From contig JBHLON010000009.1 in the NCBI GenBank assembly GCA_048940445.1, forward strand, positions 1-64,000: a DNA stretch of 64,000 bases, given 5' to 3'. Positions 14,461-21,206 of the stretch are shown here, piece by piece. Below the pieces are notes generated by a model that searched no databases, was not told where the DNA came from, and saw only the letters and a program-made list of their open reading frames with translations. Position numbers and translations under genes: made by a program. The number at the start of each line of letters is the position of its first letter. Within the stretch, counting starts at the first letter, position 1. This DNA comes from Promethearchaeota archaeon (GTDB lineage: Archaea; Asgardarchaeota; Lokiarchaeia; Sigyniarchaeales; SOKP01).

Positions 14461-14985
14461 TTAATACATATTATTTGATACTGTAAGCATTAATTTAGAA
14501 AGAGTCTCAAAAATTCTTTCAACATTAAGCCCCGTTTTACTAGAACATTCGATAAAGTCATTTAAATGGTGAGAAGTAGTAAGTTCAAATCCTTCCACGA
14601 AAGATACTTGGCGATCTTCTTCTAAATCTATTTTACCTCCTACAAGAATAATTGGAAAGCTTTCATTTGTTTCATGTATAACAGATAACCAATCTTCAAT
14701 ATGAAAAGTGGAAGGATAGCTTGTAATATCATACATCAAAATTCCACCACTAGCACCACGTATATATCTCGGAAGTAAAAATCTGAACCTTTCTTCTCCA
14801 CCAAAATCCCAAATCTGCAGCTTTATCTCTTTTCCTTCGACTTCAATTGACTTAACTACAAAATCTACCCCAATTGTCATTTGTGTATCGGATATAAATA
14901 AATTTGTCATAAATCTCTTAGTAAGGGCTGTCTTACCGCTTCCAGCATCGCCAAAAATAACTACTTTGAAAATTGCGTCATACAT
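14461..14985 (-). CDS. Rab-like small GTPase
   Basis: G1 GDAGSGKT, TIGVDF, KLQIWDFGGEERFR, YIRGA, LMYDIT, G4 GKID, G5 CSSK. Confidence 0.93.
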   Translation of the reverse strand: MYDAIFKVVIFGDAGSGKTALTKRFMTNLFISDTQMTIGVDFVVKSIEVEGKEIKLQIWDFGGEERFRFLLPRYIRGASGGILMYDITSYPSTFHIEDWLSVIHETNESFPIILVGGKIDLEEDRQVSFVEGFELTTSHHLNDFIECSSKTGLNVERIFETLSKLMLTVSNNMY

Positions 14986-15314: not shown

Positions 15315-16163
15315 GTGATAAAATTGGAAGCATTATTAGGTTTTTTGATGATTTTTATTATCGGGTCTTTTAGCCTTATAGGCGTTTTTATGATTTCCTT
15401 AAAAGAGGCAACATTAGATAGATTTTTATTTATTTTAGTAGCTTTTGCTACTGGTACTATCCTTGCTACAGCACTATTTGATTTAATTCCGGAATCAATT
15501 CACCATCTCGAAGAGTTAAATGCCGGTGGCGCTGGAATTAGTGAATCTTTATTATTTTCTTATATTATTATAGGATTTGTGGTGTTCTTTATTATTGAAA
15601 GATTTATCTACTGGTTCCATGGTCATGCTCACGAAAAAGAAAATCAATTAGTTTGTTATGATGATCTCACCGAAGGTACGGGAAAGATTGTTCAAAAAAG
15701 TGGAAAGATAAAAAATTTTGCTCTCCTTAACTTAATCGGAGACAGCTTACACAACTTTTTAGATGGAGTCATAATTATGGTTGGATTTTTGAATGGAGTA
15801 AGTACTGGATTGATAATCACACTTGCTGTTTTATTTCATGAATTACCACAGGAAATTGGGGATTTTTCAATTCTCGTTTATGGGGGATTCACTAAAAAAA
15901 AAGCTCTTTTATTTAATTTTATAAGTGGGATGATTGCATTGTTGGGGGGGTTATTAGCTTATATGCTTTCAGAAATAGTGAGCATTTTTAACTTATTTTT
16001 TTTAGCTTTTTCTGGGGGAGGGTTTTTATATATAGCAAGCACTGAATTAATGCCGGAATTAATAAAAGAGAAAAACCTAAAAAAATCTATTGTCCAAGCA
16101 CTCATTTTCTTAATTGGTTTGATACTAATAATGTGCATGATATTACTTTTACCACATGCATAA
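15315..16163 (+). CDS. ZIP family metal transporter
   Basis: HGHAH loop, GDSLHNFLDG, HELPQEIGDF. Confidence 0.93.
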   Translation: MIKLEALLGFLMIFIIGSFSLIGVFMISLKEATLDRFLFILVAFATGTILATALFDLIPESIHHLEELNAGGAGISESLLFSYIIIGFVVFFIIERFIYWFHGHAHEKENQLVCYDDLTEGTGKIVQKSGKIKNFALLNLIGDSLHNFLDGVIIMVGFLNGVSTGLIITLAVLFHELPQEIGDFSILVYGGFTKKKALLFNFISGMIALLGGLLAYMLSEIVSIFNLFFLAFSGGGFLYIASTELMPELIKEKNLKKSIVQALIFLIGLILIMCMILLLPHA

Positions 16164-16236
16164 AAAGATTCTCTGTTTCTAAAAAAACAAGTAAAGAAAA
16201 AAAATTTTTTAAATTATAATTTAAAAAATTCTTGTA

Positions 16237-16353
16237 TTATTTTCTAGCTGGCTTCTTTTTAGGAGCAGCCTTTTTTTTTGGAGCCGGCTTCTTTTTTGGG
16301 GCTGCTTTTTTTTTAGGGGCCGTTTTCTTTTTAGGAGCTGCCTTTTTTGCCAT
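16237..16353 (-). CDS. 38-aa Lys/Ala/Pro-rich histone-H1-tail-like microprotein
   Basis: Not in ORF track. ATG at 16353 to TAA at 16237 encodes MAKKAAPKKKTAPKKKAAPKKKPAPKKKAAPKKKPARK; repeat units use varied synonymous codons; purine-rich AGGAAAAGGG upstream. Confidence 0.8.
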   Translation of the reverse strand: MAKKAAPKKKTAPKKKAAPKKKPAPKKKAAPKKKPARK

Positions 16354-16902
16354 TCTGCTTCCCTTTTCCTGTTTTTAATTTCATTTCTATAAAATAGTAA
16401 AAATATGAAAAAATATACACATCACTTAAATTTAAATGTTTAGCTTGGAATTATTACTTTTTACCTATTATCTTTTATAGAATAAATGCGTTTGAGTTCT
16501 CTGAGATTTAGCAAAAAAGAACTGTTTCCAAGAAAAAACTATAAAATTGTTTGATTTAAGCGTCTTAAATTATCATTAAATGATATAATTAAAAATATAT
16601 AATGAATAACTGCTAAATAAGTAGGAAATAAAAAAAAATTATTAAGGATAGATTTAATGTTGAGATTTACTCTTTTAAAAGATACGCTGTATAATGAATC
16701 CTACTTTCAGGACTGACGCCTCCTAAAAAAGATTGATGTAATAATAAAAGCAAAACATTCAAATGCTAATCTATTTTTTTTAAAAGAGAAAGAAATACAA
16801 TAACATTTTCTTAACTTACATTTAGCTATTATGCAATACTGAAATTTTATATATTTGTACTTTTTCTATTAGAACTAACACATGTAGTATAGTGAGTGTA
16901 TT

Positions 16903-17307
16903 ATGGGAAAAGATAAGGATAAAGATAAAGACAAGGATAAAGATAAAGACAAAGAAAAAGACAAGGACAAAGAAAAGAAAGAGAAAAAAGAAAAAGAAAA
17001 AGAGAAGGATAAGGACAAAGATAAAGAAAAAAAAGATAAAGAGAAAGATAAAGAGAAGAAAGAGAAAGATAAGGAAAAGGAAAAAGTTTCTTTAGATGAA
17101 GAATGGAAACTAAATATAAGTAAGAATCTTGATTCCTTGACTCATACTTACGAAAAAATTGCTAACAAATTTAGGGACATTGATAATTATATATTAAAAA
17201 GCGCTAAATCAGAAGAAGATTTTTTCGAGAAAGTTAAGAAGAATATTGAAGACTTACCGGAATCCTCACAACAGATATTCTTAACGTTCCTAAAATCTAT
17301 TGAATAA
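16903..17307 (+). CDS. Protein with about 60-aa N-terminal KD/KE alternating-charge tract and helical C-terminal domain
   Basis: MGKDKDKDKDKDKDKDKEK...KEKEKVSLDEEWK; mixed AAA/AAG and GAT/GAC/GAA/GAG codons. Confidence 0.8.
   Translation: MGKDKDKDKDKDKDKDKEKDKDKEKKEKKEKEKEKDKDKDKEKKDKEKDKEKKEKDKEKEKVSLDEEWKLNISKNLDSLTHTYEKIANKFRDIDNYILKSAKSEEDFFEKVKKNIEDLPESSQQIFLTFLKSIE
16909..17085 (+). repeat. Degenerate hexanucleotide (AARGAN) coding repeat
   Basis: aaagat/aaggat/aaagac/aaggac/aaagaa units encoding K-D/K-E. Confidence 0.8.
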
Positions 17308-17319
17308 TTATAAATAACT

Positions 17320-17700
17320 TTATTTCAACTTTTTTTCTAGAGTTTTGATTTGACGATTAATTTCCTTCATTTTAGCGTTCTTTTCATTAGAAATAGATTT
17401 TAACTTCTGATCTAAACTCTTCTTTTTTTCTTTCTCTAAATTTTTATGCTGTTTTTTTAGCGTATTTAAAAGACTATTTAGCTTTTTCTGCTCTGAAACT
17501 AAACTCGCAACAGAATTATTTACTCCATTGAGTTTATCTTGATTAGTTTTAATTATTACTTCCACTTCACTTATTTTCGAATCGAATTCTTCCGCAATTC
17601 TACTCTTTACATATGTTTCTTTTTTCTTTGCACCTTCTTCCACTTCCATAATCCTATTTGCTATTTTATTAATTTGGTCTCTAAGTTCCTCTTCCGACAT
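17320..17700 (-). CDS. Coiled-coil protein
   Basis: Heptad-like E/K/L/I-rich sequence with no Pro. Confidence 0.7.
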   Translation of the reverse strand: MSEEELRDQINKIANRIMEVEEGAKKKETYVKSRIAEEFDSKISEVEVIIKTNQDKLNGVNNSVASLVSEQKKLNSLLNTLKKQHKNLEKEKKKSLDQKLKSISNEKNAKMKEINRQIKTLEKKLK

Positions 17701-20669: not shown

Positions 20670-21206
20670 TTAGTATTTTACTTTTACTTGAATACTTGAT
20701 ATATTTAACATTAGTTGTGTTAAATTTTCAAACACAATATCCACATTTTCCCCAGTTTTGCTAGAACATTCCATAAACGCATTTAATCCCCTAGATTTAC
20801 AAAACTTTAATCCCTCTTTATAGGTAATTTCTCGAATCGAACTTAAGTCTATTTTACTACCTATCAGAAAAATTGGAAAATCCTCATTGGTTTCCTTTAT
20901 GACTGATAACCAATCATAAATGTGAGAAAAAGATGAGTATTCAGTAATGTCATACAGTAAGATTCCTCCCATAGCTCCTCGAATATATTTAGGTAACATA
21001 AAACGAAATCTTTCTTCACCAGCAAAGTCCCAGACCATTAACTTCACATGACTCCCATTTAAAAAAATATCCTTTGTTTCAAAATCAACTCCAATTGTCA
21101 TTTGAGAATCTGGGATAAATAGCCCAGTCATATATCTCTTTGCTAATGTAGTTTTACCACATCCAGCATCCCCAAAAATGACTACCTTAAAGATTGCATC
21201 ATACAT
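20670..21206 (-). CDS. Rab-like small GTPase (paralogue of 14461..14985)
   Basis: GDAGCGKT, TIGVDF, WDFAGEERFR, YIRGA, LLYDIT, SKID, CSSK. Confidence 0.93.
   Translation of the reverse strand: MYDAIFKVVIFGDAGCGKTTLAKRYMTGLFIPDSQMTIGVDFETKDIFLNGSHVKLMVWDFAGEERFRFMLPKYIRGAMGGILLYDITEYSSFSHIYDWLSVIKETNEDFPIFLIGSKIDLSSIREITYKEGLKFCKSRGLNAFMECSSKTGENVDIVFENLTQLMLNISSIQVKVKY

Follow-up and report, generated by a model that had tools for sequence, protein, structure and literature searches.

A lysine-rich microprotein gene of one Lokiarchaeia family and its likeness to the tail of the histone HLoB

In the window analyzed here (the whole stretch of 64,000 nucleotides from one contig of a Promethearchaeota archaeon), positions 16353 to 16237 of the minus strand are a real gene, selected as a Lys-rich protein. 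Judged by sequence, the closest relative of the encoded microprotein appears to be the N-terminal tail of the tailed histone HLoB and not the linker histone H1, with whose C-terminal domain (CTD) the original prediction had compared it.

15315..16163, plus strand: ZIP zinc transporter gene (PF02535, E value of 2.9e-46), convergent neighbor
16181..16228, minus strand: oligo-T runs in the gap to the ZIP gene, candidate archaeal terminator
16237..16353, minus strand: microprotein CDS, 38 aa plus TAA, with five xAPKKK units
16358..16370, minus strand: purine-rich leader motif AGGAAAAGGGAAG, degenerate and Shine-Dalgarno (SD)-like, with a putative role
16416..16422, minus strand: ATGTGTA, predicted promoter-proximal element, also found in HLoB histone promoters (as ATGWRTA)
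16431..16436, minus strand: TATA-box-like TTTAAA, predicted promoter 83 nt upstream of the ATG, conserved in the alignment
17320..17700, minus strand: coiled-coil gene, 126 aa, context marker

The microprotein gene, its coding strand and its orthologues

The original prediction had quoted a 38-aa peptide with 19 basic and no acidic residues and had given no strand. The peptide was found to be the exact ATG-to-TAA translation of the minus strand from 16353 to 16237, and its composition (18 K, 10 A, 7 P, 1 R, 1 T, and 1 M) confirmed both counts. A 4-residue head is followed by five 6-aa xAPKKK units (x = A, T, A, P, A) and a 4-residue tail, and the mature microprotein has a computed mass of ~3.97 kDa, a pI of ~11.7 and a net charge of ~+19. 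No second short K/A/P ORF was found in the 3.64-Mb genome. The peptide had also been called unannotated, in agreement with a collection of 15 billion proteins which contained none of eight members of the microprotein family but did contain the tailed histone of the genome.

When the repeat units were compared pairwise, there were 32 synonymous versus 7 nonsynonymous differences, and such synonymous variation had been taken as a sign of selection on the protein rather than DNA slippage. However, a hydrophobic ORF of 48 aa on the plus strand (16232-16378) overlaps the CDS and uses the same wobble positions, so that synonymous variation alone cannot pick the strand. The strand was therefore tested directly. 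At the four-fold degenerate codon sites of the antisense frame, the base was A or G in 212 of 212 cases, with Lys always kept and Asn never produced. The antisense frame was open in 43 of 44 members and had a start codon in only 15 of them. The test decided for the Lys-rich frame over the antisense hydrophobic frame, and the TATA and SD-like motifs are likewise oriented with the Lys-rich strand. Selection on the protein was thus upheld by the strand test and by the pN/pS of 0.084 described below, while the argument originally given for it had left the strand undecided.

The orthologue set was assembled by DNA, protein and pattern searches. Genome HMM searches missed most members because of their low complexity, and exact DNA patterns were used instead; such patterns can miss diverged copies, and metagenome-assembled genomes are incomplete, so that absence in what follows means not found in the genomes searched. 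Of 135 genomes in a single family of the Promethearchaeia (Lokiarchaeia), f1, 45, including the source genome, carried a complete free-standing orthologue of 27 to 38 aa. These carriers comprised 15 of 42 genomes in the source genus, 28 of 54 in a second genus and one in each of two more; beyond the 45, one orthologue truncated at the end of its contig and one paralogue in tandem were found. The latter (L042:1807-1917, minus strand, genome G139) is a more diverged 37-aa paralogue with its own TATA box, lying ~210 nt upstream of the family gene. Two loci, L065 (G079) and L218 (G146), were identical over 364 nt despite the assignment of their genomes to different genera; this is a binning error or a very recent transfer, and the G079 copy is not independent. 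The start of the source copy was shared by the orthologues of 44 other genomes, and a reversed-pattern control gave no match in all 400 genomes, indicating more than chance.

For 13 alleles of equal length, the Nei-Gojobori method gave a pS of 0.52 and a pN of 0.044 (pN/pS of 0.084), and comparison of alleles with the source copy gave a pS of 0.51 to 0.88, a pN of 0.04 to 0.14 and a pN/pS of 0.07 to 0.17. The microprotein family is therefore under purifying selection. Length changes within it are in frame, with units of 5 to 6 aa gained and lost, and its composition is 95% K+A+P, with a Lys:Arg ratio of 726:4 summed over the free peptides. The original prediction had staked itself on conserved orthologues and on a frame unbroken in relatives, and both were found. 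In three orthologues, L028 (G017), L029 (G018) and L027 (G019), an in-frame stop occupies a former Lys-type codon, and in G017 and G018 about ten more in-frame repeat codons lie between the new stop and the older one. These are probably tolerated truncations, and readthrough of the stops may occur.

The anchored pattern matched in 52 of 134 other f1 genomes. In the sister family f2 it matched in 1 of 14 genomes, where the match was a long unrelated protein, and in other Asgard classes in 1 of 239 genomes, where it was a tailed histone; the free peptide was thus found in none of these 239 genomes with this pattern. Unanchored and looser patterns likewise found no free peptide in the 14 f2 genomes or in well-assembled f1 genomes such as G008, G102, G114 and G072, and pattern searches did not find the gene in several relatives that are 97 to 100% complete. 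The gene therefore appears to be family-restricted and dispensable.

The overlap with the plus-strand ORF, its shared wobble positions, the nearly always open antisense frame and the stops gained near the end of three copies could be read to mean that there is no Lys-rich protein gene here, but a slippage repeat, the remnant of a histone pseudogene or the shadow of the antisense hydrophobic ORF. We regard this as hardly credible and rejected it on the outcome of the strand test, the rarity of an antisense start, the orientation of the TATA and SD-like motifs and the low pN/pS. In addition, an intact HLoB is present elsewhere in 40 of 45 carriers, at a locus with different and strongly conserved synteny, and the microprotein is therefore not a broken histone.

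Genomic setting, promoter and relation to the tailed histone

The microprotein gene stands alone between the convergent ZIP transporter gene, from which its stop is separated by 73 nt, and a divergent DK/EK-repeat gene. Its immediate neighbors differ among genomes: the ZIP gene is adjacent in just 3, and the 126-aa coiled-coil gene was also found upstream in five genomes of another genus. However variable the neighbors, 32 of 61 neighbor-gene best hits fell on the source 87-kb contig, which is 2.4% of the genome (23 genomes, 16 outside the genus), pointing to one orthologous gene in a shuffled, loosely conserved chromosomal region. A histone gene adjoins the microprotein gene in no carrier, and inspection recognized no ribosomal genes among its neighbors. 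A mobile-element origin was considered and rejected: the viral matches were either unrelated proteins or a pair of short peptides whose contigs have 37 to 45% GC, with no family link shown. The DK/EK-repeat gene (16903-17307, plus strand) encodes 134 aa with a long N terminus of alternating D/K and E/K; it has a paralogue on contig C128 (76% DNA identity) and matched no Pfam family above the cutoff. Two similar genes for small Ras/Rab-like GTPases lie on either side of the region, at 14461-14985 (PF00071) and 20670-21206, both on the minus strand.

A TTTAWA hexamer occurs at positions -78 to -86 in 36 of 44 family members, compared with 8% of 2,080 long ORFs in the source genome, indicating that the gene has its own predicted promoter at a conserved position (a sigma-70 promoter scan is unsuited to archaea). 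Most other members carry GGAG at -16; no 16S 3' end turned up in a script-based search. All 44 members listed have T-runs downstream of their stop codon, but the region is AT-rich. Of the family HLoB promoters, 65% have the element ATGWRTA after the TATA box, compared with 0.5% of genomic TTTAWA sites; among microprotein promoters it is present in 6 of 8 in the clade of the source copy and in none of the other members. A promoter matrix was trained on HLoB promoters from outside the source clade with the TATA hexamer masked. Among 27,725 TTTAWA sites it ranked the HLoB promoter 1st, the promoter of an untailed histone 5th and the microprotein promoter 6th. The last was in the top 0.1 to 0.4% on downstream bases alone, and this held with training on other genera. 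The HLoB-like promoter is confined to the 8-genome clade of the source copy, which counts as one event, and it had been spotted by eye before the test, making the test post hoc; the 34 other members were at background on downstream bases. This likeness suggests either a relic of common origin or coregulation with HLoB. A matrix built from the promoters of the other members placed the source promoter only 1,955 of 27,725, so that promoter homology across genera is not shown.

An alignment search with the family profile retrieved a tailed histone (L050) whose tail reads like the free peptide. The source genome has five histones, one of them tailed (L058), and the orthologue of the latter in the closed 6.04-Mb genome G066 contains the tail peptides that a preprint gives for Loki HLoB, which identifies the tailed histone family as HLoB; no free peptide was found in the family of G066. 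According to the preprint, HLoB histones are abundant, nucleoid-localized and tail-methylated and are substrates of LoHAT2 and LoSIR2b (bioRxiv 10.64898/2026.07.02.735847). HLoB was found in 114 of 134 family genomes, mostly as a single copy with a short tail. Every one of the 44 free peptides tabulated begins with MAKK-x(0-2)-AP, a start also present in 47 of 65 HLoB tails of the family, and the exact start MAKKKAPAKK occurs in 13 free peptides and 21 HLoB tails. The Lys:Arg ratio in HLoB tails is 371:0, while 30% of the basic residues in the source proteome are Arg. Since AAA to AGA is a single transition, the exclusion of Arg from both peptides and tails indicates selection for Lys and not just for charge.

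The histone fold that follows the HLoB tail is absent from the microprotein, with a stop at 27 to 38 aa in all members and PF00808 matches on other contigs. No neighbors common to the HLoB and microprotein genes were found. The idea that the free peptide compensates for short HLoB tails was rejected within the family, where median tail length was 18 in carriers and 18 in noncarriers. Family f2 offers a contrast, with up to three longer-tailed HLoB copies and no free peptide in 14 genomes, as a single phylogenetic comparison. The most likely origin of the microprotein gene would be derivation from, or co-option with, the 5' region of HLoB, low-complexity similarity being weak evidence of descent.

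Several other histones were observed along the way. The HLoB-type histones L288 (G160), L263 (G025) and L264 (G032) have more than 50 residues ahead of the fold motif, and an HLoB match with an internal TAG (G002:C82:17929-18153, minus strand) is possibly a broken or misassembled histone gene. L061 (G000:C101, near 99715) is a divergent 65-aa histone resembling the bacterial-type histones L156 and L197 and lies ~4 kb from a SIR2 gene (L344, C101:95376-95909).

Proposed action and competing explanations

On balance, we lean toward the microprotein being a disordered Lys/Ala/Pro polycation that would neutralize and compact DNA in trans. The gene would be monocistronic, expressed from a histone-like promoter, and its product would in effect be a multimer of HLoB tail units made without the histone fold. 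After removal of Met, the 37-mer of ~+19 would bind the DNA backbone without sequence specificity, its charge being enough for ~9 to 10 bp, and could bridge naked DNA and histone-wrapped segments, leading to compaction or condensation in a mode like that of histone tails in cis, H1 CTDs and bacterial H1-like proteins. With Lys used so strictly, binding would stay dynamic and the peptide could be acetylated or methylated by those enzymes that act on the HLoB tail, and Lys modification could serve as a switch; the source genome has three SIR2-family genes. The microprotein would then be an accessory, dispensable factor of one family.

A simple polycation would bind any polyanion, and the peptide could act mainly on RNA or ribosomes, as an RNA chaperone or as a ribosome-coating or hibernation peptide, and not on chromatin. 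This possibility, which we consider doubtful, draws on an anatomy of charge only with no specificity determinant, on similar free peptides in bacteria not shown to have histones, and on the lack of linkage of the gene to chromatin genes. Small ribosomal basic peptides are typically Arg-rich, so that the near exclusion of Arg (4/730) counts against a ribosomal reading, as do the start identical to that of the HLoB tail, the HLoB-like promoter in the source clade and the failure to recognize ribosomal genes nearby. It is unlikely that the peptide is a histone-tail mimic, whether as a decoy, sink or buffer for enzymes of HLoB-tail acetylation, deacetylation or methylation or as a competitor for partners of that tail. 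In keeping with such a role, its start is nearly identical to that of the HLoB.2 tail peptide, described in the preprint as a methylated enzyme substrate in Loki-B35; the peptide is Lys-only, its promoter element is shared with HLoB in the source clade, and SIR2-family enzymes are encoded in the same genome. However, free peptides and the HLoB tails of the same genomes do not covary and are clearly different in the source genome, no readers are known in Asgard, and the free variation in unit number and C terminus (27 to 38 aa, with new stops in three copies) is more in keeping with bulk charge than with specific recognition.

The same K/A/P makeup, the Asgard host and the existence of CTD-only H1 proteins in some protists and bacteria (PMC6615755) could be taken to mark the microprotein as a genuine homologue or forerunner, in archaea, of the eukaryotic H1 CTD. 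We consider this very unlikely, given that it was found in one family only (0/239 genomes of other Asgard classes with the anchored pattern, the sole match being a tailed histone), the lack of a Pfam or PDB match to H1, of a linker-histone domain in the genome and of S/T-P-x-K motifs, and the fact that for a sequence of such low complexity no homology can be demonstrated. A role in organizing polyphosphate or other storage granules would parallel AlgP, whose KPAA-repeat domain localizes to polyphosphate granules and spaces them (PMC9239181), but is highly improbable, as PPK1 and PPK2 were not found in the 93%-complete source genome.

Significance and comparison with known basic proteins

A larger possibility, held tentatively, is that one Lokiarchaeia family separated the histone tail from its fold and enlarged it into an abundant, coregulated and modifiable "tail-only histone" that acts in trans, as a linker histone would, on archaeal histone chromatin. 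If true, this would be an independently evolved archaeal analogue of H1 and a living model of basic tails moving between free and fused states. The gene also suggests that a histone tail can exist as a free module, which bears on the origin of tails. Such a microprotein is easily overlooked, as gene callers skip the ORF and tryptic proteomics would shred a peptide that is half lysine, and literature searches found no description of the gene. Its weight is limited, since the searches located it in a single family that can do without it and since similar peptides are common among bacteria.

Archaea are stated in reviews to lack linker histones and H1-like proteins (PMC6136690, PMC6615755). Like the H1 CTD and Tetrahymena H1, which is without a globular domain (PMC6615755), the microprotein is ~50% Lys plus Ala and Pro, and charge-driven DNA condensation would by analogy be expected of it; it differs in having no winged helix, no S/T-P-x-K sites and no demonstrable homology. 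Neither the peptide nor the family matched the winged-helix domain PF00538, no linker-histone domain was found above the cutoff in the genome, and none of the 44 family sequences listed has an S/T-P-x-K motif. The usual H1 CTD is about three times as long as the microprotein. The description of an H1-CTD-like microprotein thus held for composition, free-standing state and selection but not for a special link to H1.

Chlamydia Hc1/Hc2, the Pseudomonas AlgP CTD and the mycobacterial HupB/MDP1 tail are likewise disordered Lys/Ala/Pro repeats of variable unit number. Repeat tails of this kind drive DNA binding or compaction in AlgP (PMC9239181) and in MDP1 (PMC10810275). The microprotein differs from these proteins in being much shorter, archaeal and without a folded domain, and it had no match in Pfam, NCBIfam or PDB sequence searches; this includes the bacterial H1-like HMMs (Hc1 PF07432, Hc2 PF07382 and AlgP), against which short low-complexity queries score poorly. 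The nearest ESM Atlas clusters were unnamed hypothetical proteins of 36 to 41 aa, with a recognition score below the trusted level, and the nearest named cluster, with HC2 PF07382 in 17% of members, is a lead only.

The same start module was found on bacterial histones, HU-like and SWIB proteins and as free ORFs of 16 to 32 aa in diverse bacteria. The free Lys-rich ORFs, from bacteria and two viral contigs (L110, L151, L158, L165, L168, L187, L208, L340 and L341), stand alone with the same start motif, often with an SD sequence, in unrelated hosts and are probably convergent with the microprotein. In the bacterial histones L156 and L197, the same repeat forms the N-terminal tail. Other Loki proteins contain K/A/P repeats as well. 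In genus g21, an RNA polymerase subunit A' C-terminal-like protein (L323, L324, L326 and L327) ends in PAKKA repeats and, after these, a short conserved segment; a protein of ~355 aa that is gelsolin-like by eye (L048, L052, L055 and L056) has an internal PKKKPA repeat linker. The K/A/P unit thus appears from its occurrence to be a generic prokaryotic basic tail, so that resemblance to H1 is expected without descent. The proposed relevance to the origin of H1 was accordingly reduced to analogy, because the free peptide is found in one Loki family (0/239 genomes of other Asgard classes with the anchored pattern) and the module is widespread in bacteria. By that analogy, the conserved Asgard tail-only gene is a candidate functional analogue of H1.

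Compared with HLoB, the microprotein has no histone fold, 4 to 6 units instead of 1 to 3, a separate chromosomal region and a patchy rather than near-universal distribution, and it is not mentioned in the available part of the HLoB preprint (bioRxiv 10.64898/2026.07.02.735847). The two share the start motif, the K/A/P unit, the use of Lys only, the same organisms and, in the source clade, an HLoB-like promoter.
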